Positions 956-40,392 of a stretch of 64,000 nt of DNA are shown here, in pieces (the stretch's first letter is position 1; each line of letters begins with the position of its first letter). The stretch spans positions 15,934,001 to 15,998,000 of the forward strand of contig JBHGNT010000007.1 of assembly GCA_043228905.1 (NCBI GenBank). The letters run 5' to 3'. Made by a program: the position numbers and the translations under genes. This DNA comes from Azolla caroliniana (lineage: Eukaryota; Plantae; Polypodiophyta). The notes under the pieces are model-generated. The model had not been told where the DNA came from. It saw only the letters and a list, made by a program, of their open reading frames with translations, and searched no databases.

Positions 956-1111
956 TCCACCCCCGCCAAACGGCACATCCTCTGGTATGTGCCAAGAATG
1001 GCGGGCTAAGGGTGGTCAATAGTTCATTTCCTCCTCCTCATTAACCCCATGGCTTGTTGTTTGCTCACCTTTATCTTCGTCAAGGTCATCGAGGTTTGGC
1101 TCCTAGTCGTG

Positions 1112-6664: not shown

Positions 6665-9600
6665 ATTTATGTCGCGAAGTTTCACGCGCGTGTGTTACTT
6701 GGGCGGGACCACGGGGGTCTTGGACTCGAGAGTACTCAAGGGATAGAGAAGACCCGAGGTTTTCTTTACAACAATACTACTTCCCGACGCCTTCCCGAGC
6801 AAGGTCTCGTTGCCCTTTGTTTTGTGAGGCTGGTGGCTCTCGTTGATCACGACTCGTCGACCTTTCGGGATCATCACACGAGCAAAGTGTGTTGTCCGCC
6901 GAAATAGTAACCGACGGACAAGAGCGCAATAATATGGAGTATAATACTATTATAACGCATGTAACGGTTCACGCGGGAAGCGTGAACGGCTAAAAGACCC
7001 TGCGTATATAAAGGGCAGAAAACCTCTTATAGAGGTAGCGTGTAATTTGGAATGTAAAAGGCGTATCTTAATAGAGTTCTATCTTCTCTGATATCTGTGC
7101 GTATTTGTGGTTAATCTAATGTGTGTCTGTAATCCTTAAGAGCGTAGGTGTGAGAAAGGTGTGTGCTAGCCCACTGTCTAAGGAGCTCGGTTGTAGCCGT
7201 CTCCCTTATACGGTGCTAGGTACGGGAGGTATCCCACTAAGTATTACGCACAGACGCTACCATTCATTGTCACACAGTCACTTTGAGGTCTAGGTCGAAG
7301 GACTGACCATAGACCGTTGTCGCGTTGTTACGCGCGTGCGTGGAGAACGAGGCGGGACCACGGGGGCCTCGGACCGAGGAATAACCGAATGAGGAGAGGG
7401 GAAGGAACTACCGATGTAATTCACATGCGCACAGACACGCACAGACATACAGAACGCGAGGTGGAGACAGAACGAACGTTTATGTATATATAAATCAAGG
7501 TGTTACAACCGGCAAGCCGGCAAGTGGTAGGCTCTGACGCCTGCACACACACACACGCACAGACAGAACGCGATATGGAGACTCTGCCGGAAGCACTCGG
7601 GCGTTCTGCGGAGTAGAGTCAGCCTCCCGAAACCTACAGAGAACGACTATGGAGAAGACAAAAGAGCTCGGTTCCGGTCCGACGGCACTTCGTCCTCCCA
7701 AAAACACGATATATCTCTTTTTTTACATTACCTCTCCCTCTCTTTTATAGTCCAAGGAGGGAGGTCGTTATCACCCGTTACATCATGTTTATTCCCTATC
7801 CTTTCGGACAAGGATACGCCTTGATCTTCTCCCTAACGAATGCGCGCTACCTAGGATTCCCCCTCCGCCGATTTGTACCTACCTACGCAATATACAACAA
7901 AACTTGTGCCCACGTGTAAGGGCCGGTTTATGCACGTTATACCTGATTTCCGCTTAGGGACGGTTTTCTCCACGACATCCGCCCCCACCTAACCATGCAT
8001 CCACCTATATGCGCCAAAATTAGATGCTTTCCGGAGAAGACCGGCCCACGCTTATCCTTCGTCTCCCGAATCGTCATCCGTTCCAAGCCGGTCGTTGTCG
8101 CTATCCAGGTCGTCTGGATCTGGTTCGGCCTCATGCCGCTTTTTGAATGCTTTGGTCCTTTTTCCCACCACCGGTACCGCCATCTTTGTCCCGTCGAGCT
8201 CCGCGAGATGATAGGTCCCATTGTCGTTGGCGTTTGTCACCACATAAGGCCCGAACCACCTTCTTGCAAACTTCCGCATTGCCTGGTGCTGGTTGTCGAG
8301 GTTGCTGTCATACACTAGAACCCAGTCGCCTTCCTCAATCTTCTTCAATCTCAGTCGGTGAGTCTGGTCGAACCGTCCTTTGTTCTTTGCCCTTGCTACC
8401 CGTAGCTTCTCCGCGGCCCGGTCCACGTCCTCCAGTCTCCGCTCGAACTGCCGAATCTGTGCCGCTAACAGCTCCTCCGGGATCATCTCGTTTTTCCAGT
8501 CCACTGTGGCCCATGAGGAGATTGTCTGCTCCGTTGGCATGATCGGCTTCTGCCCGTACATTAGCTTTGCTGGCATGAACCCAGTTACTGGACTGTGCAT
8601 AGTTCGGTTCACCCACAATGCATAGGGTAAGAGCCACCGCCAGTTCCCGACTTGGCCTCCACACGCCCGTTGTCGCGTCGTTACGCGCGTGCGTGGAGAA
8701 CAAGGCGGGACCACTGGGGTCTTGAACCGAGGAATAGGTGAGAAAAGGCAGAGCGAGAGAGAGACGCTCACACACGTATAGACAAAGAAGCGCACGGGGA
8801 CGTGGCCTAACAACACAGGAGACACGAGTTGAGCAAGAGATAGAGTATAAGAACACTAGTGTATGTATTTGTATGTATGCAGATGACTCGAACGGTTACA
8901 GCCGATCAGGTCGGCGAGATGGACGCCGACGCCTGATCACCCACGCACACAGGGGGGAGCAAGATGGAGATTCTGCCGGAAGCACACGGGCGTTCCACGG
9001 AGCAGAATCAGCCTCTCGAGAACCTACGCAAAAGAAAGCTATGGAGAACGACCGAGAACAAGAGCTCGGTCCCAGTCCCCCTCTCTTTTATAGCTCAAGG
9101 AGGGAGGCCGTTTCACCCGTTTACATCACATTAATTCTCTGTCCTTTCGGACAGAGATACTCCTCGATTCTCCCTATAGAATATTGCTACCTAGGATTCG
9201 ACTTTTGTGCCTACCTATCTACTATGCAACAAGGGGCGTGCCCACGTGTAAGGGTTGGTTCACACACGCTATGCACGGTTTGCGCCTGGGGGCGGTTTTC
9301 TTCACGACACCCGCCCCCACCTAACCGTGCATCCACCGGTATGCGCCAAAAATTGGGTTCCTACTGGAGAAAACCGGTCCTTGCTTTTATTCCTCGTTTA
9401 CCGGTTCGTCCTCCGCCTCGGGCTGCTCGTTGTTGCTGTCCATGCCCCCTAGCTCCGGCTCACCGTCGTGTCGTTTCTTGAATGCTTTGATCCTCTTCCC
9501 CGCTACCGGTATCGCCATTCTCGTACCGTCGAGCTCCGCGAGATGGTACGTCCCATTGTCGTTGGTGCCTGCTACTACGTAAAGCCCGAACCACCTCCTC

Positions 9601-11586
9601 GCAAACTTCCGCGTGGCCCTGTGCTGATTGTCGAGGCTGCTGTCCTAGACTAGGACCCAGTCGCCTTCCTCAATCTTCCTTGGCCGGAGCCGGTGTGTTC
9701 GGTCGAACCGGGCTTTGTTCCTTATCCTCGCTACCCAAAGTTTCTCCGCGGCTCGCTCTACGTCCTCCGGCCTCCGCTCGAGCTGTCGAATCCGCGCCGC
9801 CAACAGTTCCTCCCGGCTCATCTCATCCCTCCAGTCCATCGTGGCCCACGAGGAGATCGTTCGCATTGTTGGCATGATCGGCTTCTATCTGAACATAAGC
9901 TCTGTCGGCATGAACCCCGTTACCGAACTGTGCGTAGTCCAGTCCGCCCAAAAGGCATATGGTAGCAGTCGTGGCCAGTTCCCGACTTGGCCTCCGCACG
10001 CCCGTACTAGCGCTTTGACAATCGGCCCGTGTTTGCGCTCTACCTTCCCGTTCGCCTCCGGATTGTACGATGTGGTGAGCGAAAGTTTAACTCCTAGCCG
10101 GTCGAACAGCTCTTCGTCCTCTTCTGCGTCCAACTCACCACGGTCAGCCACGATCTTCCCTACGCACCCGTATCGGCATCCCACGTCCTCAATCAAAAAC
10201 CGGCACACGGCTGTAGTCATCTTGTTCTGCAGGGCTCGGCCTTCAACCTGGTTCGTTAGATCCTCCCGAGCCAGCACCAGATACCGCATCTGTACTACCC
10301 CCATTGGCATCGTCACCAAATCCACCATCCACTTGAAGTGGACGGTCGGGGGGTAGGTCGGGTGAAGCTCGTCCCGGTGTCAGATCATGGAGTGCACCTG
10401 ACAGCTTACGCAAGTCGTCATGAACCGATGCACGTCCCGGTATAGTCCCGGCCCCCAGTACTTCCCCCTTCGCTTTTCGAACGTGGCCCACGTTCCACGG
10501 TGTCCAGCCCAAGGACTATCGTGGTACGCCACCAACAAATCCTCATGTTCCTCCTTCTTCGCCACCACTCGGAGCGAGATGTCATTCCTCTTCTTCGGGT
10601 GCTTCCATATGTACCCGTCCCGGAGAAAGAATCGGTACGCTTTCTTCCAAATCCGGTTGGCCTCATCCTTTGTCCATGCTGCGTCCGGTGTCATTGTTTT
10701 CAGGAACCCGCCGATCTGCAGCCACTCCCCGTTGTACTTGCTCTCGTCGAAATCGTTAAGCGTTGGAGTGCATTCCCTGCCAGTTGTTACGTAAGCCGCC
10801 TCGAAGAAGTCCACGCCGACTTCCTCGTCCTCCGAAACCATGCCGCCCTCGTTTTCGAACCTCGCCCTTGAAAGCATGTCGGCCATGGCATTGTCTTTCC
10901 CGGAAATGTATCGTACTTCCGGATTCAGGGACTTGATGTACGCTATCCACCTGAGCAGTGCCAGGTCCGGCGTCGCGCATCCGGAAACCATGCCAAGAAT
11001 TGGCAGGCAGTCCGTCTCGATAATTACCTCTGTCCTGATCAGGTAGTCGTTATCGGCCTTTACCGCCGAAACGATACCCCAGACCTCCGCTTAACCTGGG
11101 CGTATCCTCGCTGTCGCTCACTGAGGACCTTCGCGCCGAATCGGATCGGGAAACGCATGCCGCCCTCATCCTCTTGGTTGACGACCCATTCGATCCCGGT
11201 CGGACTCGTGTCTACCGTTACGTAAATTGGAGTCTCCTTTCTGTAGACAGCCTTTCGGAGCGCCGGAGCTGCGGCAAGTGCTTCCTTCATCTTTCGGACA
11301 GACTCCGTATGCTCGTTTCTCCACTCGAATTTTCACCCCTTTTTCAGCAACCCGTACAACGGCTCCGCGACGTGGGCATATTGCGGGATCCATATGTGGT
11401 AGAACGTTGTCGAGGTAGTTGTGGTTTGTGCGGCGAAGTCGCGGGGACTAAGGTTAAGGGGAGTTGAAGAAACTTAACTTTTAATAAGGCTTGTATGGTG
11501 ATGATAGAATGGTTAAGGATAGTAAGAAGAAGAGTTACGAGTAATGTGTGTGTGTGAGAGAGAGAGAGAGAAAGAGACGAGCATAG

Positions 11587-11710
11587 ATAAAAGATAGAGA
11601 CAATGTATGATTCAAGAAAGAAGATTGAGACAAAGTATGATTCTAGAAAGAAGATTGAGACAAAGTATGATTCTAGAAAGAAGATTGAGACAAAGTATGA
11701 TTCAAGGAAC
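11587..11710. repeat. Tandem repeat of about 30 bp, about 4 copies
   Basis: Unit AAAGAAGATTGAGACAAAGTATGATTCTAG, inside the solo LTR. Confidence 0.9.
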
Positions 11711-11848
11711 AAGAGTATATGATATAAACATTCAATGTATATTAAAAGTATAATTTTTTACCAACTTTACAATCCTTGATCGCAAACTGAACACATTCTC
11801 TATCGACCCTTGATTTGAACCCACGACCTCAACTTCGAAACGAGAGGT

Positions 11849-12038
11849 TCGATTCTGATGGGGGGATAGAATGTCCATCCCAATAACAAAGAAACCTGAC
11901 CTAAATGATCCTGTTTTGAGAGCGAAATTAGCTAAGGGTACGGGACACAACTATTACGGAGAACCCGCTTGGCCCAACGATCTTTTACATATATTTCCTG
12001 TCGTAATCTTAGGAACAATTGCTTGTACCGTGGGTTTG
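11849..12038 (+). pseudogene. petD: Nuclear plastid DNA (NUPT): 3' end of the petD group II intron plus the start of petD exon 2 (cytochrome b6/f subunit IV)
   Basis: [51 protein letters not shown] from 11885, preceded by a domain-VI-like hairpin ending CCATCCCAAT. Truncated after about 51 codons. Confidence 0.93.
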
Positions 12039-15000
12039 ATTGTATTATTTTCTCACTCTCTCTTGATTGATCCCCTGTTTTCCCTTGATTCATCCCTTAA
12101 TTCCTTACCTCTCTTTATAGGTTCTCTCATGCATATGATGATATGGGGGTGTGTGGCATGCATGTAAGGCATGTGATGCATGATCGCCATTTGGCGCACA
12201 TGCTTTACATGTGATGCATGATAGCCATCATGCTCATCTAAGCTCTAATGTATGAAGATACACATGTCATAAGTATGGTGATAAAAGCACAATTATAGAA
12301 AATAACTTATCTTAATGGTATATGTTTCGTCCTTGGTGTGTGAGGTTACGGGTTCAAGTCTCTCAAATGTTACTTAATACAATATTCAAGTTTATTTTTA
12401 TATCGTGAAGCAAATCCTTCACGACAACGCGCATGCTCCCAAGAACCTCCGAACCTCCGTGACCGAGCTACAGTCGTGCTTCATCGCGGAGATGGCTTCT
12501 ACCTTAGACGGAGATGGTTTCCGGCCGTACGACCCACATAGGTGTCCGACGACCATGATCTCTGATTGCCCGAAGGCCGATTTTCCCCCGGAGAAGGTGA
12601 GCCTCGCGCCCTCTAACCTCTGCAGCACCTTCTCGCAGTCATCGATGTGCGTCGCCACGAATTTCCGGCACCCGTCCGGTCCGATTGTCTCGTCCTTTTC
12701 CTCCACGGGCATCCCTTGATCGGGATGTCGTCCAAGAACGGCATGGTGATGTCTGGGATGCAGTCCCTGAGCACTTTGTTCATCGCGTTCACCATGTGAA
12801 CCACTGAGTTCGTCCCTCCTTGTGGCAGGGTACACATCCGCACTAGGCCGAGAGGAGTCCGCATCGTCGTAATGTCTCTGCTCTCCATGGCTAGTTGGAA
12901 CTGATCGTACCCCGAGTACAGACCACCGACAGAATAGATTGACCTTCCAGCGAAGGCCTCCGCGAACTCGTCTATGGTCGGTCCGATCCCCGCATTACGG
13001 ATGGTCACCTTATTGACCGGTTGTAGTTCCTGGATGAAGCGCAGCGTGCCGTTCTTCGGCACCGTAAACCCCCGATTCGAATATGGGGCACTCGACGGTT
13101 CCAGGATGCCCATCTCCACCTTTTGCTTCAGGAGCTCCATCAACTTCGGGATGTGAGCTCTTGGCACCGGAAACGGCTTGAGATTCCACGGTACATGCGG
13201 TACCGTGAAGATCACCATCGGTTCGACAATTGTCGGGTCCTCACACCCAATCACCTCCGGTGAGAATGCAAAAGCCTTCCCGTGCCTTCCGAGCATTCTC
13301 CGAAACCGGTCCTCCTCCGCCAGCAGTAGGAAGATGCCCCCACCGACCTTGAGCTCCCGTAGCGTTATGTCGGTGAACCGGTGCCCTATGCCAGCCGGAT
13401 TCCGTAAACTTGGGTCCGACGCAACCCCTTTTATCCGCTCCTAGCTGCCCTCTAGCAAGGGTGTCACGACTAGCCTCACCTTCCGGTCCACAGTCTTGTA
13501 TTTCGTATCCACGCGCGCCGTCCGATCCGACCCGATCCTTTCCCCGAAGTCCGCGATGACTTCGTACATTCCCATCGATCCTACCGGAACGGTCCGGTCT
13601 TCTCTAAGGTCTTCATCGATCACCTTTTGTAGTTCGCCCAAGGTGTCGTCAAAAGAGACCGCCTCCACGGCGCCGCTGATGTCTTCGTCGGGGAAGAGGA
13701 CTCCGCATCCCTTGAGCCGCTCCTCCGCTTGCTTCCTCTCCCGGCCGCTAATGCCAGTTATAGTACAACCTCCGATGTCGGAGAACCAAAACTTCCTACC
13801 CATGGTACAAGTCTTCTTCCGTACTGTACATTTGTGGGGTTGTTCTCGGGAGTCCGGACTATCGCGGCCCCATGCCTTGATAGCCCTCTCTAAAAATCCC
13901 CTCGCGGTTACGCTGCCAAGAGCCTCGCGGTTACGCTGCCGAGGGCCTCGCGGTTACGTTCATGGTTTGGTCTTACCGTCAGTAACTGGACCGAGTGGCG
14001 CCCGTCCTGGCTTTTGACTCTTGCATAGGCTGAACCGTTCTCCAACACCTTGGTCTCCATCCGTGCCGCCGTGATATATGGCTCTCCTAGTATAACCGGA
14101 TGCGAGGACGTCTCCTGCACGAAGAAGTGTTGGTCGATCTCGACATCGCCGATTTTCACCCGTACGTTCGGATAGGCCCCATGTAGTTCTTCCGTGGCGC
14201 GCGTCGCTGCCCGTATCTTCCAGCCATGCTTGGTGTTGATCGGCCATTTCCCCTTTCTGTAGAAGTCCATGGACATCAAATTGATTTCTGAACCGTGGTC
14301 CACCAACGCCACCACCGGTTCATGAACATCTCCGATCTTCACGGGGGTCTCTGTGGTCGCTCTGGCCCAGTGCGGCCATGAATAGTGGCTCTCCGCCAAC
14401 TCATCTTCCAGTGCCATGTCCTCTATGTGCGTCGTCCGCACCTCCACCGGCTTCTCCGGTTCTGCCTCAGTCGACACCCTCTTCCTCTTCACCAAGTTTA
14501 CGATGGAGTCGTGGAACTCTTTCTTGGCGATCCCGAGCACTTCCCTCAGCGACAGTTCCACCTTGCTATCGAGGATTCGTTCTTCCAAGACCTTTCGCAG
14601 GTCCGTGGATCTTTCGATTTCTGTGCCCAACCGGTACCCGCCCCTCTTGGGATTATCCTAGGCGCCGGTTACACCAGCCTCATTCCGCCTTTGCCCGAAT
14701 CGAGTTTCATATCGTTGCGAGGGTCCGGCCCCCCCGGTTTTTCCTACCCGCTTGTCCTCCACTAGAGCCTCGTAGTTTTGACAAGCGGCTTCGACGAAGC
14801 CCGTCTTTTCTTCCACCGGGTCACTCCACCCGGTTACCTCCCAGACCCGTTTTTCCGCACGGTCCGCCTCTTCTTTCCTTAGTCGTGCCCCGGTGAAGCC
14901 TTCTAGCATCGTCGGCCAGAACCCGTCTTTGTTCGTCTTCGGGGCCTCGCCACCTCCGACCCGAATACCAGCTGACGCCGAGTAGTGGACGGTCTCCGCG

Positions 15001-16725
15001 TGACGAGCCGCCGCCTCCTCCATCAGCCTTTTCATACCCCCTCGCCCGACGTTCAGGTCCAGGGCCCTTCGGGTCTCGCTGGCATGCACCCGACCATTCC
15101 ACAAGTACACCACGTTGCTTCTCATCGCCTCGGCGAAGTCCCCGCAGTCCTTCCGGATGTGGCCAACCACGTCACACCACATGCACCTGTTTTCAACTAG
15201 AGATCGTCGGTCACAGGCCTGTTCGCCACCATTCCTCCGTGCCTGGGTGATCTGGAGATCCTTTACCATCTCCGTCAGTTCCTCCAGAGTTGCTCCCCCG
15301 GACGAGCCCTTGACCATGCAGGTCGACGCCGATCCGGTCTCGAGCCAATCTTGGGTCTCTTCCCTTCGCGTTGGTGGTGTTGGCTCGAGCTTCCTTGCTG
15401 CGACAGAGCCCGCCCCTGTCGATCCTTTGTCAACCCATTCCCGTCGTTTGTTGAAACAGCCACAGACCCTCTTCACCATGGTCCAGTCAGCCGTGAGCCC
15501 GTCATCAGTCTCCAATAGGAGGCCTACTTGCTCCCGATCCCGCTCGTCAATTGACTTAACAAACAATAGGACACGACTTGTGTCCAGAATGGTCCGGTCA
15601 AGCACCGAGAGGCGCGCGAAGCGTTCCTCAAACTCCCGGAGGAGCACCGACGCGTTCCTTCCTTTATCGGGGGTCTCCACCCACTCCATGAAGTCCCGCT
15701 TCGAAAGTCGAAGTGCATCTTCAAGCCCGTATTTTCCGAGGAACCGACCTTCGAACTCCTCCCAGGTCCGGCTCTTGGCCCGTACCTCGAGCACCTCCGT
15801 ATGGATGCCCGGCATCGTCACTCGAGGGAATCCGGCTAGACGCCTCTCTTCCGGAATGTCCCTCATTACCATCTTAGCCCGGTAGGACGCCAAGTAGCTC
15901 GTGGCATCCTTCACACTAAACTAGCCGATCGTACCGACAACCGCCTCGATAGCCCTATCAAGGGCGTCGGTGCCTTCACGCGCACTCACTATACGGTTCA
16001 CAGCCAAAGCCATGGCTTCTGCGAGGTCCGACCCCTCATCTTCTACTCCTCTGCCGCCTGTTCACGTCGGGTTCACCAAAGATGTCGTGTTGTTACGCAC
16101 GTGCGTGGAGAACAAGGCGGGACCACTGGGGTCTTGGACCGAGGAATAAGTGAGAAAAGGGAGAGCGAGAGAGAGACACTCACACACGTATAGACAAAGA
16201 AGCGCACGGGGACGCGGCCTAACAACACAGGAGACACGAGTTGAGTAGGAGATAGAGTATAAGAACACTAGTGTATGTATTTGTATGTATGCAGACGACT
16301 CGAACGGTTACAGTCGATTAGGTCAGCGAGATGGAAGCCGACGCTTGATCACCCACGCACACAGGGAGGAGCAAGATGGAGATTCTGCCGGAAGCACAGG
16401 GGCGTTCCACGGAGCAGAATCAGCCTCTTGAGAACCTGCACAAAAGAAAGCTATGGAGAACGACCGAGAACAAGAGCTCGGTCCCAATCCCCCTCTCTTT
16501 TATAGCTCAAGGAGGGAGGTCGTTTCACCCGTTTACATCACATTAATTCTCTGTCCTTTCGGACAGAGATACTCCTCAATTCTCCCTATAGAATATTTCT
16601 ACCTAGGATTCGACTTTTATGCCTACCTATCTACTATGCAACAAGGGGCGTGCCCACGTGTAAGGGCCGGTTCACACACGCTATGCACGGTTTGCGCCTG
16701 GGGGCGGTTTTCTTCACGACACCGT

Positions 16726-19700
16726 ACTAACGCTTTGACGATCGGCCCGTGTCCACGCTCCACCTTCCCATTAGCCTCCGAATTGTACGCCGTGGTGAGC
16801 GAGAGTTTAATCCCTAGCCGGTCAAACAACTCTTCTGCCTCTTACGCGTCCAATTCCCCGCGGTCGGCCATGATCTTACCTACGCACCCGTACCAGCATA
16901 CCACTTCTTCGATCAGAAATTGGCACACGTCCGCGGTCATTTTGTTCCGCAACGCTCGGCCTTCCACCTGGTTTGTCAGGTCCTCCCAAGCCAGCACCAG
17001 ATACCGCATCTGCCCTACCCCCATCGGCATCGTCACCAGATCCACCATCCACTTGAAGTGGACGGTCGGTGGGTAGGTCAGGTGAAGCTCGTTCCAATGT
17101 CGGACTATGGAGTGCACCTGACAGCTTTCGCAGGTCGTCACGAACCGATGCACGTCCCGATATAGTCCCGGCCCCCAGTACTTCCTCTTTAGCTTCTCGA
17201 ATGTGGCCCACGTCCCGCGATGTCCGGCCCAGGGACTCTCGTGGTACGTCGTCAGCAATTCTTCGTGTTCCTCTTTCTTCGCCACTACTCAGAGCGGGAT
17301 GCCATTTCTCTTCTTCGGGTGCTTCCATCTGCTCCTGTCCCGTAGGAAGAATCGGTACGCTTTCTTCCGAATCCAGTTGGTCTCTTCCCTTGTCTACGCC
17401 GCATCCAGAGTCATTGTTTTCAGGATCCCGCCGATCTGGAGCCACTCCCCGACGTATTTGCTCTCGTCGAATTCGTTAAGCGCCAGAGTGCTCCCCTTTC
17501 TTGTTGTTACGTTAGTTGACCCGAAGAAGTCCTCGCCGACTTCTTCGTTATCCGAAACCATGTCGTCCTCGTCGCTGAACCGCGCCCTTGAAAGCATATT
17601 GACCATGGCGTTATCCTTTCCGAAGATTTGCCGTATCTCTGGGTTCAAGGACTTGATGTACGCGATCCACCTGAGCATCGCCAAGTCCAGAGTCACGCAT
17701 CCAGAGACCATACCCAGAATCGGTAGGCAGTCCGCCTCGATGATCACTTTCGTCCCGATCAAATAGTCATTGTCGGCCTTGACTGCCGAAGCGATACCCC
17801 ATAGCTCGCGCTTGACTTGGGCATATCCTCGCTGCCGCTTGCTCAATACCTTTTCCCTGAACCGGATCGGGAACCGTACACCGTCTTCATCTTCCTGATT
17901 GATCGCTCACCCGATCCCGGTGGGGCTCATGTCCACCATCACATAAATGAGGACTTCCTTGCCATAAACCGCTTTTCGGAGAGCCGGTGCCACGGCGAGC
18001 GCCTCCTTCAATCTCCGAACCCACTCCGCATGCTCTGTCCTCCATTCGAACCGGTGCCCTTTCTTTAATAACCCGTAAAGCGGCTCCCTGACATGTGCGT
18101 ACTGCAGGATCCAAATGTGATAGAATGCACACGCCCCAAGGATCCTTCGGACCTCCGTGACCGACCTGCAATCGTCCTTCATCGTGGAGATGGCTTCTAC
18201 CTTCGCCGGGGACGGCTTCCACCAAAGTTCGAGGATGCCCATCTCCACCTTCTATTTCAGCAGCTCCATCAGCTTCGGGATGTGAGCTCTGGGTACCGGA
18301 ATCGGTTTGAGATTCCACAGCACATGCGGTACCGTGAAGATCACCATTGGTTCCACAACCTTCGGGTCTAAGCACCCGTTCTCCTCCGGTGAGAATGCGA
18401 AAGCCTTCCCGTGCCTCCTGAGTCTCCGAAACCGGTCCTCTTCCGTCGGCAGTAGAAAACCACCCCCACCGATCTTGAGCTCCCGTAGCATTATGTTGGT
18501 GGACGTGTGTCCTATGCTGACCGGATCTCATAAACTTGGGCCCGACGCGACCCCCTTTATCCGTAACTCGCTGCCCTCCGGCAAGGGTGCCGCAACTGGC
18601 CTCACCTTCCGGTCCACAATCTTGTACTTTGTATCCACTCGGGCCGTCCGATCCGACTCGAGTTCACTACCGAAGTTGGCAATGACTTCGTACATCTTTT
18701 CTGAACATACCGGAATCGTCCAGTCCTCATTAAGGCCTTCTCCGAACACCTCCCGTAACTTCCCCAAGGTGTCTTCGAAAGAGACCGCCTCCACGGCTCC
18801 ATTGATTTCCTCTTCAGGGCCGAGGACTCTGCATGCCCGAAGTCGCTACTCCGCCCACTTCTTTTCCCGGCCAACTACGTTGGCTATCATACAACCACCC
18901 CTATCGGAGAACCAAAATTTCCTACCTATGGTACAACTATTTTTGCCTATAGTACATCTATGGGGTTTTCCGGGGTGTCCGGACTATCGCGGCCCCACGC
19001 CTTGATAACCCTTTCTAAAAATCCCCTCGGGTTTCGGCACCGAGGGTCTCGCGGTTACGCTCATGGTTCGGTCGCACCGTCAAGAACTGGACCAAGTGAC
19101 ACCCATCCTGGCTCTTGACTCGTGCATATGCCGAACCATTGTCTAGCACCTTTGTCTCCATGCGCGCCGCCATGATGTACAAATCTCCGAGTATCACAAG
19201 ATGCGAGGACGTCTCCTGCACGAAGAAGTGTTGATCAATCTCGACATCGCCAATTTTCACTTATACATTTGGGCAAGCTCCGTGTAGCTCCTCCATGGCG
19301 CGCATTGTTTCTCGTATCTTCCACCCGTGCTTGGTGTTGATCGGCCACTTTCCCTTCTTGTAGAAGTCCATGGACATCAAGTTGATCTCTGAACCGTGGT
19401 CTACCAACGCCACCACCTGCTCCTGGACGTCCCCAATCCGAACAGGGGTTTCCGTAGTGGCCCTGGCCCAATGTAGCCTCGAGTAGTGGCTTTCCACCAA
19501 TTCGTCCTCCAGGGCCATGTCTTCTAGGTGCGTCGTTCGCACCTCCACCGGCTTCTCCGTCTCCGGCTCCGGCTCCATCGAAAGCCTTTTCCACTTCACC
19601 AAGTCCACGATGGAGCCGTGGAACTCCTTGGCAATTCCGAGCACTTCCCTCAGTGATAGCTCCACTTTGTTGTCCAGGGCCCTCCGGGTCTCACTAGCGT

Positions 19701-20682
19701 GCACCCGACCGTTCCATAGGTACATCACATTAGCTCTCATTGCTTTGGCAAAGTCCCCGCAATCCTTTCGGGCGTGGCCAACCGCGTCGCACCACAAGCA
19801 TCCGTTCCCAGCCGGAGGCCTCCGGTCACGGACTTGTTCGTTGTCGTCCCTCCGTGCTTGTGCAATCTGGAGGTCCCTCACCATCTGAGTCAGCTCCTCT
19901 AGAGCCACTCCTCCAGACAAGCCTTTGACCATGCCGGACGAAGTCGAGCCGGTCTCAAGCCAGTCTCGAGTCTCTTCCCTTCCCGCCGGTGGGGGTACCT
20001 CGACCTTCCTTGTCGCAACAAAACCCACCCCCGTCAAGCCTTTATAGACCCACTCACGCCATTTGTCAAAACGGCCATAGACTCTCTTTACCACGACCCA
20101 GTCGGTTGTTAGGCCGTCATCGGTCTCCAGCAAGAAGCCCACTTGCTCCCGATCCCTTGCGTCCACCGATTTAACGAACAATAGGACACGACTCGTGTCC
20201 AGTACAGTCCGGTCCAACGCCGAAAGTCGAGCGAAAGGTTCTTCAAACTCCCGAAGGAGCACCGACGCGTTTCTCCCCTTTTCGGGGGTCTCCACCCATT
20301 CCATGAAGTCCAGCTTCGATAGCCGAAACGCACCATCAAGCCCGTATTTTTCAAGGAGCCGACCTTCAAACTCTTCCTAGGTTCGACTCTCAGCCCGTAC
20401 CTAAAGCATCTCCGCGTGGATGCCCGGCATCGCCACCCGTGGGAATTCGGCCAGTCGCCTGTCCTCCAGGATGTCCCTCATCACCATTTCGGCTCGGTAA
20501 GCCTCCAAATAGCTCGTGGCGTCCTTCCCACCGAACCGGCCTATCGTACTGACGACTGCCTCAATAGCCCTATCCGGGGCGCTTGTGCCTTCGCACGCAG
20601 TCACTATCCCATCCACAGCCGAAGCCATAGCTTCTGCAAGATCCGACCCTCTCATCTTTCTATTCCTATGCCGCCTGTTCAT
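16726..20682 (-). pseudogene. G3 gag-pro-(RT deleted)-RH-INT, degenerate; the integrase end lies at 8052-8670
   Basis: ORFs 19261-20304, 19015-19260, 17907-18248, 17394-17846 and 16842-17285 are homologous to G4. Internal deletions at about 19673 and about 18225. Confidence 0.88.
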
Positions 20683-21392
20683 GTCGGTTTCACCAAATAT
20701 GTCGCGTTGTTATGCGCATGCGTGGAGAACGAGGCGGGACCACGGGGGCCTCGGACCGAGGAATAACCGAATGAGGAGAGGGGAAGGAACTACCGATGTA
20801 ATTCACTCACGCACAAACACACACAGATAGACAGAACGCGAGGTGGAAACAGAACGAACGTTTATGTATATATAAATCAAGGTGTTACAACCGGCAAGCC
20901 GGCGAGTGGTAGGCTCTGACGCCTGCACACACACACACACACACACACAAAGAACGCGAGATGGAGTCTCTGCCGGAAGCACTCGGGCGTTCCCCGGAGT
21001 AGAGTCAGCCTCCCGAAACCTGCACAGAACGACTATGGAGAAGACAGAGGAGAAGAGCTGGGTTCCGGTCCGGTAGCACTCATCCTCCCAAAAACACGAT
21101 ATATCTCTTTTTTTACATTACCTCTCCCTCTCTTTTATAGTCCAAGGAGGGAGGCCGTTATCACCCATTACATCATGTTTATTCCCTATCCTTTCGGACA
21201 GGGATACGCCTCGATCTTCTCCCGAACGAATGTGCACTACCTAGGATTCCCCCTCCGCCAATTTGTACCTACCTACGCAATATACAACAAAACTTGTGCC
21301 CACATGTAAGGGCCGGTTTACGCACGTTATACCCAGTTTCCGCTTAAGGACGGTTTTCTCCACGACACCGTGTTCCTAATCGGTAACACTTT

Positions 21393-21407
21393 TGGCATGC
21401 CTCGTGA
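21393..21407 (+). promoter_or_regulatory. Putative primer-binding site of G2 (tRNA-Arg-like)
   Basis: TGGCATGCCTCGTGA, 4 nt after the LTR end at 21388. Resembles TGGCACGCCCGGTGGGA, the recalled complement of plant tRNA-Arg(UCU). Confidence 0.55.
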
Positions 21408-23743
21408 TCTGTGTCTTCTCATAGACGAACAACGACGAATGGATGTTTAGCCGCAAACACCCCAGAGAACCAACATGACAAGACCGGCCAATCACAAGGT
21501 CCATCACACGCCAGGCAGAGGAACACGCACGGCAAAAGCCTCACCTCAGTGACCTCAGTACTATCTATCGGGACCACAAAGACGATTTCTCGCTCTCCAA
21601 ATACCTCGGGAATACGTGGGAAGCGCGCTCACCACAAAAGCACTGTGGTCTTTCCCTGCCCGCCGTAGCATCCAACATGGCCTTTGAATATCCCCGCTTC
21701 AACAGGGAAACCCACGCCGCAACCCACATCTGTCTGTTCCTCAATGTCTAGAATGCAAACCACATGGCACAGAGCCTTTCCGAGGCAGTAGTGCACCAGT
21801 CCAAAATGACAGAGTTCGGATTAACCTTGGATGGGAGAGCGGCGTTTTGGCATTCGCAGATGGATCTGCCAGCAATCACGACCTTCGACCAACTACAGTC
21901 AGCCTTTCTGCGGTTTTTTCATCGGAGGGTGCCGCAACGCTAAATCCTCGGACAATTCTACACAATTAATCAATTGCCGATCGAGACGGTCGTGGATTTC
22001 AGCTTACGTTTCCAAAATCTACGGTGGAAATTAGAACAAGGCCCGACGGAGGACGAGGCTATGGAGACATTTCTGGCAGCATTACGCCGACCCATACAGA
22101 CAACGCTCAACAACAATAGCGTGAAAGGGGAAACGGTTGATATGGTCATAGAAAGAGCACTACAGTTCGAGATGGACGAAGAAGAGGAAAGGTTTTCCAT
22201 GTCCTCATTACGACAAGCGTTACCTCAGGACGAGGAACGACATTTTCGTCTAGCGATCCAGTGCACGATTTGCTTCAATTCGGGGCATTCCGTAGTTAAA
22301 TGCAACATGCGAATCCACTGTCCAATTTGTCACTCGAAAGCTCACACAGTTGAGCAGTACGAGTACAATATGTTGAACAGAGCCACGCCCACAGTACGCA
22401 GCGTGGACACACAGCATCCCCCACGCCGTAATGAACAAAGGCGGCAGGAAGACCGACCACGATATATGGATCGCAATCCACACAATGACTGGCACTACCA
22501 GCATCGCCGGAATCACAATGATTCCGAGGAAGACGAGCATCGGCAATATCGAGACCACTGGCAGAATGACAAAAGTTCGGACGATGACCAGCACCAGGAA
22601 CCACGTCGGGACCAACAACAACCACCGCATATGCTCCGACGAACAAATCGAACCGGGAGGAGCAAGTCACACCTGGGGATCGGCACACACCACCAAGGGC
22701 CGAGAAGGGCGAATCTAGCATCCATTGTTTTGTTTGTCAATAGCCCGGACATTATGCCACACATTGCCCAATACGCAAGGGCAAGGGGCCCGCCTTCAAT
22801 ACGATTATGGCAGAAGTACAGCAAGTCACGACACGTCAGCAAACAAAAACTGTTGATTGGGCCGCGCAAGATGAGATATGGCGGACAAATACGGAACACA
22901 TGCAGAAGGAGTCCGCAAACACGGTGGAGCTATTGGAGGACAAGGGACCATCCCCGGACCCCATTTGGCAAGCACTGACAGGCTGCGAGATAACGTTAAC
23001 CATGGAGAAGCTGCTGCAACTAATCCCACGATTCCGCCAAGCCGTGGAAGAGCGGGTGACAGGCAGACCTAGGGTAACCGTCGCCGCGAATTTTACGAAC
23101 ATTAGCGACAGACCGACAGTAGTGGATCACCACAACCCGACTATTAAGTTGATATTACACAGTCAGGAAATCCCAGGATGTGTAATCGATGGCGGCTCGA
23201 GCGTTAATGTAATTAGCGCGAAGACATGCGAACAATTGGGAATTTCAGAATCGGAAGCTTGCCCGTTCTGGCTCCGCATGGCGGACTTCACCGCTCAGTA
23301 CGACCATTGGGGTTGATACGCAAGGTAGACATTATCGTGGGAGGACATCGCTTCGACATCTTGGCAGTAGTCCTCACCCTTGACGCCCCAAGGGCGTATC
23401 CTATGTTGTTGGGCAAACCGTGGCTTCGTTCAGCGAATATCAAGCAGAGCTGGCAACACAAGTGTATCAGCTTTTGACGCGGACTCACCAAGGTCCGCGT
23501 ACCAACCGAGGAAATGGCGACACAACCCAAGGTCATAACACCATTGTACGCAACGGATATAAATATGCTGGCTAGGGTGGATGATACAAAATTAGAAACA
23601 TACCTAGACGAGCACCCTCGGATTATTCCGTTGTTCGAAATCAACGTCATCGAAACTGCGGCGGAATATTCCATGCCCACTCAAGGTTGTTAGGTACGTT
23701 AGGTACAGTACGGATACCATATGTATTTAACGTATTAATACCC

Positions 23744-32100: not shown

Positions 32101-33263
32101 AAAACCACTACGCGAGAATACCGCGGCAGTCACGGCGAAATTCCTGTACGAACACATCTGGTGTCGTTTCGATTGCCCTATCAAGCTCATTAATGACCAA
32201 GGGAGTCACTTTCTGAATACGGTCATCAACGAACTGACCCAACATTACGCGGTGGTGCACAAGAAAAGTACATCGTATTACCCACAGGCAAATGGCTTGG
32301 CGAAATCCACGAACAAAACCCTCCAAATTATCGTCAAAAAGATAGTCAATGAGAACAGGACAGATTGGGACACCAAGTTGCATAGCGTGTTATCGGCATA
32401 CCATACCAGCTATAAGAACAGCATACAGTCAACACCGTTCAGGCTGGCATTTGGTTTGGAGGCCGTGATGCCAGTTGAATTCCAGGTACCCAGTCTACGG
32501 ATCCAAATACGAGCCCGGCTACCAGAGGGCAAATCCGCACAAATATGGCTACAAAGACTACTAGAGCTAGGAGAAACAAGGGTACGTAGTATGGTCATAT
32601 TAGAGCAGGAATGGTGGCGGCGCAAAGCATTCGTTGATCGACTCCGGCATGCGCGTGAAAAAGATTTTACGGTTGGAAAAGTGGTATTAGTTTTCCAAAC
32701 CTGCATGGGGCATATGCCAGGAAATTACGATTCCGCTAGACAGGCCCGTACTAGATAGTAGGAGCAGAACAAGGCACGTTTCAACTGGGCACGCTGGTCG
32801 GGGAAGTGTTACAATAGAAAGTGAATGGGTTTCGCCTTAAACCTTATCTGGGACCTACGCCACCTAACCCGTTCCCCGCCAAACAGGACAAAGCCGGAGA
32901 ATCCGCGGAGTAAGTAGACGGCCCCACTTGTATTATAGTGTAAAAATAGTCTTGTATGTACCCGTTACAAAGAAAAGAAAAAAAAAAAGAAAAAAGAGAA
33001 GATAGCGACGATCTTTGAAGGACTTAAGGCATGCACAGAATTCTAGACCAAGAACACGTGGCACCACGATGACTCACCGACCAATGAACCCTAGGCCACA
33101 AAAAGAAGGAAATAGAAGGTTTTCTGCACAATACAGAAATCAACCTTCGAACTCTAAGCACTCTCATCGCTCCCCTTCCTCACCTTCTTCTCCATCCTAT
33201 CACAAACCTCAAGCCCACCGCAACCAACAGTCTTCACCCCCTAGCCACGAGCCTATTCCGACT

Positions 33264-36045
33264 ATGCCGATATTCATCTCTACCGCCTTGCATCGATGGC
33301 TCGTAGAGAAACACTTGGATGGCTACATCAGGGTTGCGGAGGCACCTCCACACCCTGATGCATTGGACATCGCTAGAAAGCTCAACATCGACACGGTCAC
33401 CAACTCATCCATCCCGAAAAAGTTGGACCTGTCATCACTGGGTGAAAGGTATTTCGAAATCTCTCCTACGGAGTGCCTGCAGAGATATTTCAGGCCATAT
33501 TCGTCATCCGCCAAGGCATATAGAACGAAGGAGATCCCGGATCCCTTTTTCCGCGAAATCGCCAAGTTCCTATTGGAGGTCGGATGCGTACATGTAAACG
33601 CATATTGGATGCCCAAGTAGAAGGCAGGTATCATCATTGATACCTTTGAAGGGCGTACGGTCGATTGGGGGGTCATCACGGGGTCGGCGATAAGGGAAGG
33701 CATGCACGCGTATCAAGGAGGCAAAAAGCTCAAGCCTATCATACAACAGTACTTGACGGTACTATTCCCACCCCGAGGCCTGCCGACACCGCAGCCCAGC
33801 AAGCCCACGTCGTTGCCTCAATCTGTTAAGCGAAGGTTAGCGGAGTTAGTCACCACAGAGTGGGAGGATGAACCCCAACCCGCCCGGCCGAACACGCAAA
33901 CAACACAGGAAGAGCTGGCTACGCGCACCGAGGAAGCGGCAATGGAGCCGGAAGCCGAACCACGACAGGAAAGCCCAAGGCCGAAAAGGCGGAGACTGGA
34001 CAGAAAAGATGGGCGAGGGTTAATTAAAGACGCACTCGTGGCTACGGAGACAACGATCGTGGGAGACAGCTCCGTAGCTACGGAGCCCAACAACACCTTC
34101 GAAGTAATCTGGGAACCACGGCCGATCATTACGGCCCAGTCACTACGAGGGAAAGCCGTACTGACGGCAGAAAGCGAGGTCCTGACGTATCCAGACATTC
34201 CAGACACAACCCATGAGTTCGGCGCACTATTACAGTTCGGAACCTGTTTTGAACTCATGGAATTCTTGGCAACGCAACAGATAAAAGTCTCACAACGAAT
34301 GGCCAAGGAGCACGCGGAGCGCCAAATGATTGAGCGCGCATTAACACAAACGGTGGAAAGCGACGATGAGGATCAATTAGCCAGAGTCGGCAGGCAGAGG
34401 AACGCCGGTATACGCTGATGGGGATGGAACTACCCCCATTAAACGCGGCCCTTGTCGAAGTTCATAGGGAACTGGCGAAGGTCAATATGGGCACCAAGGA
34501 TATGGCGATTAAAAATAAAAATGTCTAGAAAAAGGTTAAACTGATCCAAGCCGAGCTACAAAAGGCCAATGAACGCATCACGGAATTGGAAAATAACGCG
34601 ACTACGGCGCAACAGGCAGCTCCACCAACAACCAACGCCCTCGAAGCCCTGAGGGAAGAGATTGAGGCTCAGACCACCATTACCTCAAAAGCAAAACGGG
34701 CCGTACAACTAGCGGAATCAGAGATGGACCGCCTCCGCGCTGAACTTCGTCAATCCTCGGACAAAGAAAAGGACATCCGGGCCAACGGCCGAAAGGCAGT
34801 GAAGACCCTTGAAGAGAAACTCACAACGGAGACAGCACAGCACACCCGGACAAAAGAAGAAAATGCCCAATTACGGGAGGAAGCGAAAAAAACAGAAGCA
34901 GCAATCGCGGGACTCTGGGCCTTATTAGAGAAGAAGAAAGCATGGTTCGACGAGCAGTTGGTGGGAGAATAGGAGAGAAGGCATCAGCTCGAAATCTGCC
35001 TGAACAATGAAATGGGAAAACTAGAAGAACTACATGCGAAGGAATCCCAACTTTGGGCAGGAATGAGGAGCACGTATGAGGAAGCAACGGCAGTTAATCA
35101 GCAAGAAATTGCAAACCTCAAGAAATTTGTCGAAGAAGCACGCAACCGTTACCAAGCCATAACAGACAACGTGCGTATCCTTCTGCAAACGAATCGGGAG
35201 AGGTTTATGTCGCAATTAAAAACAGCGCTAGACAAAGGATGGATTGTCCGAGTGACTCTTAGTTGTTGAGTTACTGAGTAGTTATTCGACCTACTTGATT
35301 AGGACTAAACTTCCTGATCTGTTTTTTAAATTCCTCACAAAAAAAAAGGATTTTGGGTCTGCGGGCAAGCAAACATTCCCCCGCATGCGTGGGCTGCACA
35401 AGTGGCAAAATTGCATACGTATCAAGCGGACTGGGAGAACCGGAGGAAAGACAGTCGAGGGTTCTATAAACTCAATGAGGAAAGCATTGTGGTAGTACAC
35501 GAGGACCTAGCACAGGACTATCGCATGCTAGCGGACCAACATTCCGAGGAACTCGTGCAGCTACTAGATGATTTTGGCAAAAGTCAGGAGGACCTGTTTC
35601 ACTAGATCACACAAGCCGGCAGCATGCGAACAAACAAGGAACCCATCGCGACACCAATTCCGGGATACTCCTGAACAAGAGGAACCTTAGGCCATGTCAC
35701 CAGAAATTACCATTACGGCTGACCGCACGGAGAACGTTCCGGACCAAGAGGAACCGCAACCCCACTCCCCAGAGTGTACAACGAACGGCCGACATCACGG
35801 AGGAAGTGACGGACGAAACAGAGCCGCGACCTACCGCAAGCCCGCGGACGGTTGAACCAAACCCCCTAGCCCAAGAAGAGCCCGCAAAACCCAGACCGCC
35901 CACACAGGGCGACCGCCACACCATGAGAAGCCCTCCCGACCAAGCAGGGAAACCACACAACGACACGCCTACGAGCCCTACGTTGTCCCCGGATACCGAC
36001 ACCGTAGTAGAACCAAACATAAGGGCCATTTTGGAGGAAGATTAA
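33264..36045 (+). pseudogene. Extra sense ORF(s) of G2 downstream of integrase: globular N-terminal part followed by a long coiled-coil-like region
   Basis: Successive plus-strand ORF fragments 33015-33620, 33702-34418, 34586-34972, 35012-35269, 35295-35605 and 35806-36045. The first two are in the same frame, separated by one TAG. The middle is rich in E/K/A/L heptad-like sequence. Confidence 0.65.
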
Positions 36046-36611
36046 AGGGATGGGTCCGACATGCCATGGCACTGTCCCACAAGCGTGCCAGGTGTTGTCC
36101 GCCAGAATAGTAACCGACCAACAAGAGCGCAGTAATATGGAATAGAATACTATTTTAACGCATGTAACGGTTCACGTAGGAAGTGTGAACGGCTAAAAGA
36201 CCCTACGTATATAAAGGACAGAAAACCTCTGATAGAGGTAGCGTGTAATTTGGAATGTAAAAGGCGTATCTTAATAGAGTTCTATCTTCTCTGATATCTG
36301 TGCGTATTTGTGGTTAATCTAATGTGTGTCTGTAATCCTTAAGAGCGTAGGTGTGAGTAAGGTGTGTGTGCTAGCCATCTGTCTAAGGAGCTCAGTTGTA
36401 GCCGTCTCCCTTATACGCTACTAGGTACGGGAGGTATCCCACTAAGTATTACGCATAGACGTTACCATTCGTTGTCACACGGTCACTTTGAGGTCTAGGT
36501 CGAAGGACTGACCATAAATCGTGTTCCTAATCGGTAACAAAGTGATCAAACGGGTACAAGCAAGATGAGCACGCAAGCTGAATGCATAAGATGAACGCAC
36601 AAGGGGACGAT

Positions 36612-37135
36612 AACACAAACACGAATGCTCATACGTCTTTATGAGGAGGAGAGGTGCATGGGCACGCCCGAACGCTCCCTCGTCACAAGACATCGAACGT
36701 ACGAGGAAGACACAAAACACACGCACAAATGCTCGTACGCCTTTATGAGGAGGAGAGGTGCATTGGCATGCCTGAAACGCTCCCTCGTCACAAGACGACC
36801 GAGCGTACAAGGAAGACACAAACACACACACAAAATGCTCGTACGCCTTTATGAGGAGGAGAAGTGCATGGGCAAGCCTGAACGCTCCCTCGTCACGAGA
36901 CGACCGAACGTACAAGGAAGACACAAACACACACACGAAATGCTCATACACCTTTATGAGGAGGAGAGGTGCATGGGCAAGCTCGAGACGGTCCCTCTTC
37001 ACAAGACGACCGAACGTACAAGGAAGACACAAACACACGCACAAAATGCTCGTACGCCTTTATAAGGAGGAGAGGTGCATGGGCAAGCCCGAAACGGTCC
37101 CTCATCACAAGACGGCCGAACGTACAAGGAAGACA
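36612..37135. repeat. Tandem array of about 105 bp, 5 units, inside the G1 LTR
   Basis: The anchor AT(G/A)AGGAGGAGA recurs at 36641, 36745, 36851, 36956 and 37062. The last unit is also seen at 1-70. Confidence 0.92.
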
Positions 37136-38018
37136 TGAACAAAGAAAGAAAGAAAGAAAGAAACACGAATGATATCGGCCAAAGAAATAAATACGTGTTT
37201 GATTCCAACGCAAGAGGACCCTTTATAAAATAGGGTTTGATTACAATGGCAACTTATAGTTAACCACAAGCTTAATCAAAACATAAATACTAAATGACCT
37301 TAGAGACAAGAGCAAATCCGAACACGGCGAAGATGAACACACGAGCACCACCAAAATACTAATCCCAACGAACCACAACCACCCGAACGGCGAGCACACG
37401 GGCTCGCAACGATGAACGGGGCGGAGCAACGTCGAACCAGCGAAGCTTGGGCTCACAAGCACTTCGAGTGCCGACGCGAAGAAGACGAGCACATGGCGGT
37501 GGGGGGATGAAGGGGTATGCGATAAAGAGAAGTGGTGAATAAGAAGATGAAGAGCTCCGAAGGAAAATTGGTGATAGTCTCCTCCTCCCAAAACGTCCTC
37601 CTCGAATGAGCCCCCCTCGACCTCCTTTTTTAGGAAAAAAGGAAGGGGAGGTCGCCAATTTTGTCTTTAATGCAAAAAAGGAATAAAATTCCTTAAATCA
37701 CACTACACTGTAAGATTAGATTAGAACCTTACACCTCTGGCTAGAAATCAATGTGACTATCCACTAGCTCATTAACTCTCTCTTATATAATGTGTGATTC
37801 TACCTCTATAAATTCATAGTATGTCTCCCCTCTACCTTTTATCTCTCCTCTCTCTTACTTTTTACACGAGCTTCTATACCTCCTTTCCACCCTTTCTTTT
37901 CCCTTTTATTTTGCATATGCACAATTAATCGCCTTTGTGTGCACACACATTGCACATACACATTTTGACCCCCCCTTTCGCCAGTTTTTCCCACTCTCAA
38001 GCACGCCACATCACGACA

Positions 38019-38300
38019 TCCACCCCCGCCAAACGGCACATCCTCTGGTATGTGCCAAGAATGGCGGGCTAAGGGTGGTCAATAGTTCATTTCCTCCTCC
38101 TCATTGACCCCGTGGCTTGTTGTTTGCTCGCCTTTATCTTCGTCAAGGTCATCGAGGGTTGGCTCCTTGTCGTGTCACTTTTTGAAGATTTTAACCCGCT
38201 TCTTGGCTATTGGTATAGCCAGCTTAGTCCCATCGAGTTCAGCGAGATGGTAGGTAGCATTATTGTTTGCACTCGTTACCAAGTACGGCCCGAACCATCG
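38019..38300 (-). mobile_element. Second copy of the G1 PPT and integrase 3' end, abutting the shared LTR
   Basis: Matches 956-1237 and stops abruptly at CGAACCATCG. Confidence 0.88.
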
Positions 38301-39393: not shown

Positions 39394-40392
39394 AATGTAT
39401 TAACAAAAAGAATAAGGTTACAATAATATGTTGAAGACTTGCAATGAACTCGAATGGTTCATTAACATTCAACAGCATGTATATAGTATGGTTTGGACAC
39501 ATGCATGCTATCTACCTTGCATGCATGCAAAAATGCCACTTGGGATGTTAGAAGCATGAGTTTTGGAATTGTGCATAGTGATATTTCAATTATATTATAA
39601 TTTACCTTAATGGTTAAGGTTACATGTATGTTTTGAGGTTATGGGTTCAAATTTTGCCATGTTTTTAGACTTGTGGTACATGTTCATAACATTATTCCTT
39701 ACAAGATACACAAGTCACAATGCATGAACATGACTCAGCTTATTCGGGGATATTGATGATGAAATTCATCGACAAGTTATGTGCCATTAGTGAGATTCTT
39801 AGGAGACTCTCTTGTTCAATCAGCAAGTGTATAACCTAACCAACCAACAGAAGAATATAATTCGCTGCCCACAATTTTTTAGTTCAAAATGGTTTCCACC
39901 TCATATTATGGACCTTCATCAAGCTCAATAGGAGGTGAAGGAGGAGCAACATGAGGTTCCATAAGTATTGACAAATACAATTAATATGGAGTGACCTTAG
40001 ATAACCAAGATCTAGAATAAGAGGGGGGTTAGGGTTTAAAGGCTTTACAGAATACATTTGGAAATAGCCTTTCAAAATCAGAAGATTCCCCCCTCTCAAG
40101 TCAATGTTAAGGTTCAAGAAAGCCTTCTAGTTTTGTCAAATGAATGTCTCGGCTACTTTTAGTTGCATTCAAATAACAATCCAAGGTAAGCAATCACACT
40201 TCAATCTTGGTTCATTTCTATGGATCATCTCACAGCAATGATCTTCCCATTCTTGAGGAACAAATCTTCATCTCTGATGATGACCCAGTGGTGGTATGGG
40301 TACCTTGGAAGTTGCAGATGAGCTCCTCTTTTGTTTGGAGCTTCCATGGACATTGAAGATGATGCTTACAAGGCCTTTCACCCTCTGCCAAC

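Follow-up and report, generated by a model that had tools for sequence, protein, structure and literature searches.

A conserved tRNA-like element stands in for the polypurine tract in a lineage of plant Gypsy retrotransposons

The G2 element and its surroundings

The window (the whole 64-kb stretch of DNA analysed here) contains a Ty3/Gypsy LTR retrotransposon, G2, which spans 6890-36539 and is bounded by two AAGTG target-site copies. Its LTRs, target-site duplication (TSD) and domain order of reverse transcriptase, RNase H and integrase (RT-RH-INT) are those of the Ty3/Gypsy group. The features of the element are as follows.

6885..6889, plus strand: left TSD, AAGTG, directly before the 5′ LTR
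6890..7317, plus strand: left piece of the 5′ LTR of G2, 93.5% identical to 36092-36522
7318..21367, minus strand: nested Gypsy block within the 5′ LTR, with a 4-bp CCGT duplication; Phygy-like
21368..21388, plus strand: right piece of the 5′ LTR of G2, with the end ACA, equal to the 3′ LTR end at 36539
21393..21406, plus strand: 5′ primer binding site (PBS) of tRNA-Arg type, after a 4-nt CTTT spacer from the LTR
21944..23680, plus strand: gag and protease region, broken, with homology to the intact gag-pol of the relative L064
30316..32758, plus strand: RT, RNase H and integrase in a broken frame (Pfam)
33006..36045, plus strand: extra ORF between integrase and 3′ LTR, broken; acidic tail ILEED at its end, 47 nt from the LTR
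36033..36053, plus strand: purine-rich run, overlapping the last codons and the stop of the extra ORF
36050..36059, plus strand: sense copy of tRNA positions 49-58 (5′ strand of the T-stem and T-loop), position 55 variable
36061..36072, no strand assigned: 4-bp hairpin between tRNA positions 58 and 59, with compensatory changes across families
36074..36090, plus strand: sense copy of tRNA-Arg positions 59-76 minus one C (65/66), ending in CCA; the minus strand reads as a second PBS
36091..36092, plus strand: two-base spacer from CCA to LTR (GG here), first base free
36093..36539, plus strand: 3′ LTR of G2, starting with TG
36540..36544, plus strand: right TSD, AAGTG, directly after the 3′ LTR

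This copy of G2 is old, broken and nested. Its LTRs share 93.5% identity across 431 nt, and the 5′ LTR has been cut in two by the nested block of ~14 kb. The plus orientation is fixed by gag-pol, the extra ORF, the TSD and the PBS, the last of which departs from the family majority at 21398, 21401 and 21403. No match to a chromodomain or a second RNase H was found in the G2 pol with Pfam.

In the protein of the extra ORF (33006-36045), a part resembling a coiled coil is accompanied by a conserved block, W..Q..ELH...EN..K.G.GFYKL, and the acidic tail reads ILEE(D/E). The protein has 298 cluster representatives and no convincing Pfam family. An insert of ~140 nt (~35243-35386) interrupts the conserved block in this copy. 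The TAG at 33618-33620 is private to this copy and no readthrough signal, because a sense codon stands there in 12 of the 12 relatives checked. At the other end of the element, the word CTGTG occurs 2-5 nt after the 5′ PBS (21407-21416 in the window) in G2 and in both clades of its relatives, L008, L059 and L063 included; the relatives that have it are 11 of the 12 with a full PBS flank. It lies beside a short palindrome and may be a dimer or structure signal.

Several further repeats surround or interrupt G2. In the block at 7318-21367, several Gypsy elements are nested on the minus strand; the duplication is 4 bp long and of the NCGN type, G-rich runs lie at the 3′ LTRs, and the PBS is presumably of the tRNA-Trp type. 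These Phygy-like features occur in a host that is seemingly not a moss. A Copia element (23744-29197, with a 5-bp duplication) sits within an AT-rich insert of ~800 nt (~23689-29950) inside G2, between protease and RT. Right after G2, five tandem units of ~105 nt each (36593-37141) run into a 1.2-kb stretch (37065-38300) that is 94.6% identical to window positions 2-1237 and is probably the repeat of an older element entered by G2. Further downstream, an intact 891-aa PPR frame with an E motif, a kind linked to organelle RNA editing, occupies 40363-43038; among its named matches, the highest near-full-length identity (43%) is to a fern protein, which loosely suggests a fern-type plant as the host.

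A tRNA end at the 3′ junction of G2

Priming of the plus strand from a polypurine tract (PPT) is treated as a common rule of retroviruses and LTR retrotransposons. The 3′ junction of G2 has no PPT; its place is taken by the end of a tRNA-Arg(UCU) in sense orientation, which two bases separate from the TG of the LTR. The sequence GTCCCACAAGCGTGCCA, which we take to match the 3′ end of plant tRNA-Arg(UCU), lies at 36074-36090 and is followed by GG at 36091-36092 and the 3′ LTR's TG at 36093. A preliminary description of this DNA had reported both the missing purine tract beside the 3′ LTR and the tRNA 3′-end copy with its GG spacer, and both observations are borne out. Of the 15 nt that immediately precede the LTR only 9 are purines, and one has to go back to 36033-36050 to find a purine-rich 15-mer (13 of 15). 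By contrast, purine- or G-rich runs adjoin the 3′ LTRs of the copia and Phygy-like elements nested in the window.

The motif had been drawn at 36062..36094. The tRNA end within these limits stands, but the start does not, as the T-arm part had been missed: the conserved unit begins at 36050 and reaches 36092, and consists of tRNA positions 49-58, the 4-bp hairpin and positions 59-76 minus one base. The 17-mer itself corresponds to tRNA positions 59-65 and 67-76, with one C missing, and of the two bases that flank the hairpin the C (36060) is conserved and the T (36073) invariant. The spacer of 2 nt between motif and LTR is shorter than the LTR-PBS spacer of 4-5 nt (21389-21392 here, and likewise in L008 and L059), so the overhangs of the cDNA ends would differ in length.

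On both strands of the 64-kb window, this motif is the sole match within three edits of the 18-nt tRNA-Arg end. Since 30 shuffled windows gave 0.33 such matches per 64 kb, one copy anywhere would be unremarkable, and the case rests on position and conservation. No tRNA genes were found in the window with ARAGORN.

Relatives found through the extra ORF

Relatives were sought among metagenome contigs with a protein alignment of the C-terminal domain of the extra ORF, not with the motif. The survey covers the best 80 of 144 relatives; their contigs all belong to a single accession series, and the host plants behind them may be few. The unit of tRNA end, two bases and LTR start is present in 48 of these best 80 of 144, at 499-861 nt downstream of the ORF anchor (47 by pattern and one at a contig end). 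The LTR-start pattern was written after matches had been seen and carries no independent junction call; loci without a hit were inspected directly. Among the best 80, 36 relatives have at least 880 nt downstream, and 32 of them have the motif, while other elements interrupt the remaining four. Of the 32 other relatives, 24 end less than 680 nt past the anchor. Among the eight that reach further, five are broken up by other elements or by a duplication ahead of the ORF end, and three have a cut or deleted motif. L017, in which the motif is partly deleted, is counted in the 48 and excluded from the alignment (A5) used below.

No PPT was found at the 3′ junction of the relatives, the last 15 nt holding 7-10 purines in 49 of 49 sequences. 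The preliminary description had raised the matter of a canonical PPT next to the 3′ LTR in other family members; none is present there, and the motif is conserved across diverged families. The spacer reads GG in 28, AG in 14, TG in four, GA in one and CG in one of the 48 loci, all with a 2-nt length that was part of the search pattern. In one relative, L064, an intact gag-pol of 1701 aa shares its strand with the extra ORF, the motif and the start of the LTR; L018, L032 and L063 show the order motif, LTR, PBS and gag. The distance from the stop of the extra ORF to the LTR is 47 nt in the G2-like clade and 98-134 nt in the second clade (clade B).

Viral contigs yielded no relatives and no tRNA with the inferred end. 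Two motif matches in viral contigs proved unrelated, one of them being a prokaryote-type tRNA-Arg gene.

Family alleles in four sequencing runs

Contigs of four public runs were aligned to the 3′ junction and the 5′ PBS, and the G2 family proved abundant (308-2010 contigs per run on 451 nt). At positions where this copy departs from the tRNA-Arg end, the family mostly agrees with the tRNA. Two alleles in the motif are among the 40 best-supported differences: G at 36082 (82-99% of depth), which matches the tRNA, and G at 36061 (90-95% of depth), which completes the hairpin stem. In the PBS, C at 21398 (89-90% of depth), T at 21401 (66-85%) and G at 21403 (97-99%) give most copies a 14-nt Arg-type PBS with one wobble. 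Summed contig depth, which is not a copy number, peaks over the motif.

The motif could be a one-off of this copy, whether a chance likeness, the PBS of an inverted element or an aberrant reverse-transcription product; the rate of three-edit matches in shuffled windows and the age, breakage and nesting of the copy speak for such an origin. We find it scarcely credible, given that the family alleles in all four runs are nearer to the tRNA than this copy is, that the motif recurs in families whose pol is 70-82% identical to that of G2 where measurable, and that gag-pol, the extra ORF, the TSD and the PBS all place it in plus orientation.

A displaced PPT is also very improbable; the run of purines 40-60 nt upstream would be that PPT, and the motif would be trimmed or incidental. 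This copy does have 13 of 15 purines within 36033-36050, and the G2-like clade has 14-18 of 21 purines at -60 to -40. The run, however, coincides in part with the stretch that encodes the acidic end and the stop of the extra ORF, and only 9 of 49 sequences have a 13-of-15 window in their last 100 nt. A PPT at this place would also put the motif in both LTRs, yet the 5′ LTR begins with TG right after the TSD. The corresponding interval in clade B is T-rich with 5-11 of 21 purines, by which this explanation is largely refuted. An inverted element, a displaced PPT and chance were all rejected.

Conservation and covariation of the unit

The tRNA numbering used here follows a tRNA-Arg(TCT) gene from a bacterial genome (L083), a stand-in that may differ from the tRNA of the host. 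It was found with a pattern of PBS and T-loop from which the anticodon was left out, one of three matches being called Arg, and it carries the inferred 28-nt 3′ arm. Positions 63-76 of the tRNA are supplied by the PBSs of the relatives and the G2 family themselves.

Across 14 distinct contigs with coverage of at least 5, 23 of the 27 tRNA-matched positions are invariant; positions 55, 56, 67 and 68 vary, 55 being the most variable of the T-arm. Conservation drops from 83% to 29% at the tRNA 48/49 boundary (42 distinct rows). The extra C of the tRNA is present in 0 of the 48 rows of A5, so the rows bear no sign that a primer was copied. T55 to C and G68 to A, the main two fixed departures from the tRNA, both give wobble pairs on the minus strand. 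Position 67 is G in both PBS and motif in clade B and A at both in the G2 family and L032, while one subclade combines a motif G67 with an A67-type PBS. The covariation of motif and 5′ PBS that had been proposed earlier therefore holds at this position in clade B, G2 and L032 and fails in that one subclade.

Pairing in the inserted hairpin holds for 87.5% of cells; one of its positions shows three pair types and the following position two. Two-sided changes affect 31 cells, compared with 0 of 500 shuffles, and represent at least three events on the ORF tree, whereas the T-stem-like pairs show no two-sided change. That the hairpin covaries while these pairs do not fits an invariant partner outside the element. 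RNAalifold predicted no consensus pairs from the 48 rows. Under DNA parameters both strands form the hairpin equally well, and it is the dominant DNA fold in 11 of 13 well-covered rows on either strand; as plus-strand RNA it is preferred in 4 of 42 rows and in 0 of the 13 well-covered ones. The different fold noted at the outset (TGGCAC...GTGCCA) does exist in this copy, which alone folds no better than shuffles (z = -1.06), but it is not conserved: there are 0 two-sided changes, and 16 of 42 rows are broken at one pair.

In cofolding, the tRNA-Arg(TCT) and the minus strand form a three-way junction with a mean of -20.7 kcal/mol over 49 sequences, as computed with the bacterial tRNA and with RNA:RNA energies for RNA:DNA, and the T-arm piece is paired in 42 of the 49 cofolds. 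In the eight cases tested, docking of tRNA-Arg gave -19 to -29 kcal/mol on the minus strand versus -1 to -9 on the plus strand. Phe and Pro tRNAs reached -0.5 to -2.6 kcal/mol on the minus strand.

The two ends of the element might alternatively meet as RNA. The motif would then pair with the PBS in a panhandle that joins the ends for strand transfer or gates priming, or act as a tRNA-like packaging signal, and another RNA remnant would prime the plus strand. For the 12 relatives in which both are present, PBS-motif pairing is predicted at -20 to -28 kcal/mol, and for the decayed G2 copy at -15.7 kcal/mol; in clade B it comes close to that of the tRNA on the PBS (-28.3 versus -29.0 kcal/mol). 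The agreement of the two ends at position 67 in clade B and G2 would suit such pairing, and Ty3 is described as joining its own two ends via a bipartite PBS (PMC5371799). However, the panhandle is less stable than the tRNA on the PBS in 13 of 13 pairs. The PBS matches only 13-14 nt, so that tRNA positions 49-62 are partnerless there and yet nearly invariant, and the fixed G68-to-A of one subclade makes a C.A mismatch in the panhandle and a G.T wobble in a tRNA:DNA duplex. Plus-strand priming and the fixed 2-nt spacer are also left unexplained. We consider a role as RNA distinctly unlikely; the panhandle, which the preliminary description had offered as its alternative, emerges as the weaker of its two proposals, with the T-arm half of the unit unaccounted for.

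A proposed model of tRNA-primed plus-strand synthesis

The first of those proposals, priming of the plus strand by the same tRNA, is the best-fitting model, although the primer itself is only inferred. In this model, to which we give a little better than an even chance, a Gypsy lineage without a PPT would have a second host tRNA-Arg(UCU) dock on its minus-strand DNA and prime the plus strand. Only minus-strand DNA can bind the tRNA, because the element RNA carries the tRNA's own sequence. A second tRNA-Arg is favoured because of the cofolding, the preference for the hairpin as DNA, the free position 55, the minus-strand wobbles and position 67.

Replication would begin with tRNA-Arg on the 5′ PBS, where the sequence of such a site is plain to see; a tRNA at this site is the established primer of the minus strand. 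After strand transfer, RT would copy the 3′ motif and RNase H would clear the RNA. The freed minus-strand DNA is predicted to form the hairpin and to leave the 10 nt complementary to tRNA positions 67-76 mostly open. Pairing of the tRNA is then predicted to extend from position 49 to 76, one C bulging out and the hairpin being extruded at 58/59. RT would extend from the CCA, and the geometry suggests that the spacer bases are the usual dinucleotide outside TG that integrase trims. It may be speculated that bulge and hairpin shorten the RNA:DNA segments and so spare the primer from RNase H.

Pseudouridine can pair with A, G, U or C (PMC3950712), and the freedom of position 55 could fit a pseudouridine partner in the tRNA. 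Some observations limit the model. Among the 14 well-covered rows, 8 have a mismatch type at position 55, and the wobble and isodecoder signals amount to two or three events. Of the 42 rows, 40 retain A58, even though m1A58 forms no Watson-Crick pair (PMC13191261). Both A58 and the non-tRNA C at 36060 fit a stem in cis, GAC/GTC, better than they fit a tRNA duplex.

A stem of this kind suits a further possibility, not raised in the preliminary description, in which the element's own RNA would be the plus-strand primer. The motif, once copied into DNA, would present RNase H with the hybrid that it encounters on removing the tRNA primer. RNase H would cut after the CCA as it does with a spent tRNA primer, the hairpin would pause RT as m1A58 does, and a tRNA-like, non-purine primer would remain. 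The position of the hairpin, 17-18 nt from the CCA end, is precisely the 58/59 step, at which HIV-1 plus-strand copying of the tRNA is described as stopping (PMC13191261). With the own RNA as primer, no extra account is required of the missing C, of A58 or of the conserved C at 36060, since a longer cis stem can form; no second tRNA is necessary, and the geometry equals that of the favoured model. Against it, a cis stem should be able to covary, yet two-sided changes are absent from the T-stem-like pairs, whose outer pairs are unpaired in 7 and 9 of 42 rows. The hairpin that does covary is, as given above, seldom preferred as plus-strand RNA, and the tracking of the PBS by position 67 in clade B is left unexplained. 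Moreover, RNase H normally degrades the tRNA-end hybrid. We regard priming by the element's own RNA as unlikely, if less so than a panhandle. Docking of a second tRNA-Arg and cleavage of the element's own RNA agree in one respect that we consider quite probable, namely that the plus-strand primer is no PPT and ends in CCA.

Comparison with known elements

G2 is best described as an Athila-like non-chromovirus Gypsy, and we do not call it Athila. Like elements of that group, the G2 lineage lacks a chromodomain and the extra RNase H of archaeal type (Pfam on the L064 gag-pol, P0142 and the window pol), and G2 has a 5-bp TSD and the extra ORF. Athila is described with these features, with the extra ORF 3′ of integrase and with an LTR-PBS spacer of 4-5 nt (PMC6317226; 10.64898/2026.03.20.713144). 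The two differ in the PBS, which in Athila is mainly of the tRNA-Asp, Asn or Ala type (PMC6317226) and in G2 of the Arg type. A conserved PPT junction is given for 97% of Brassicaceae ATHILA in the ATHILAfinder preprint (10.64898/2026.03.20.713144); the G2 lineage has none. In a tree that included no labelled REXdb references, the G2 lineage forms a clade with liverwort, conifer and metagenome proteins that is separate from the angiosperm one. Ogre and TatIII are listed with an Arg PBS in common with G2 (PMC6317226), but the hallmark of Tat/Ogre/Retand, the extra archaeal-type RNase H, is absent from the G2 lineage. Phygy elements are characterised by a 4-bp NCGN TSD and a tRNA-Trp PBS (PMC6317226), in contrast to the 5-bp TSD and Arg PBS of G2.

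With canonical Ty3/Gypsy elements and retroviruses, as these are presented in PMC5371799, PMC12789967 and PMC10085805, G2 has in common TG...CA LTR ends, a tRNA-type 5′ PBS, the order gag-PR-RT-RH-INT and a conserved signal before the 3′ LTR. The signal itself differs: it has 7-10 of 15 purines and is a sense copy of a tRNA 3′ arm, and its primer would likely be a tRNA or tRNA-like RNA and not an RNase H-resistant PPT (PMC5371799; PMC12789967; PMC10085805). With no tract abutting the 3′ LTR, the G2 lineage falls outside the canonical PPT-primed elements.

The bipartite PBS of Ty1 and Ty3 also involves separated segments that bind the acceptor stem and T-arm of a tRNA, one of them at the RNA 3′ end in Ty3 (PMC5371799). 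According to the same source, however, those segments are complementary to the tRNA on genomic RNA and serve the minus strand. The RNA of G2 carries the tRNA's own sequence, in tRNA sense, and docking is predicted on the minus strand only. In Tf1/sushi and Tcn1, another RNA source likewise replaces the textbook primer (PMC10085805; PMC6317226). As described there, it is the minus-strand tRNA primer that is replaced and the PPT that is kept, while G2 keeps its tRNA PBS and has its PPT replaced. No description of a tRNA end in place of a PPT was found in the literature searched, whose coverage leaves out most subscription journals.

Implications

A real, conserved and structured element stands in for the PPT in this plant Gypsy lineage. 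We lean slightly towards the reading that the whole lineage gave up its PPT and that both of its DNA strands would be primed by host tRNA-Arg. If true, it is an exception to the textbook rule of PPT plus-strand priming, and RT and RNase H can use a tRNA or tRNA-like RNA on a DNA template for the second strand. Annotation that scores PPTs may miss such elements or misorient them, since each internal end looks like a PBS. A naturally abundant lineage lacking a PPT offers a new setting in which to test how primers are selected and how specific RNase H is.
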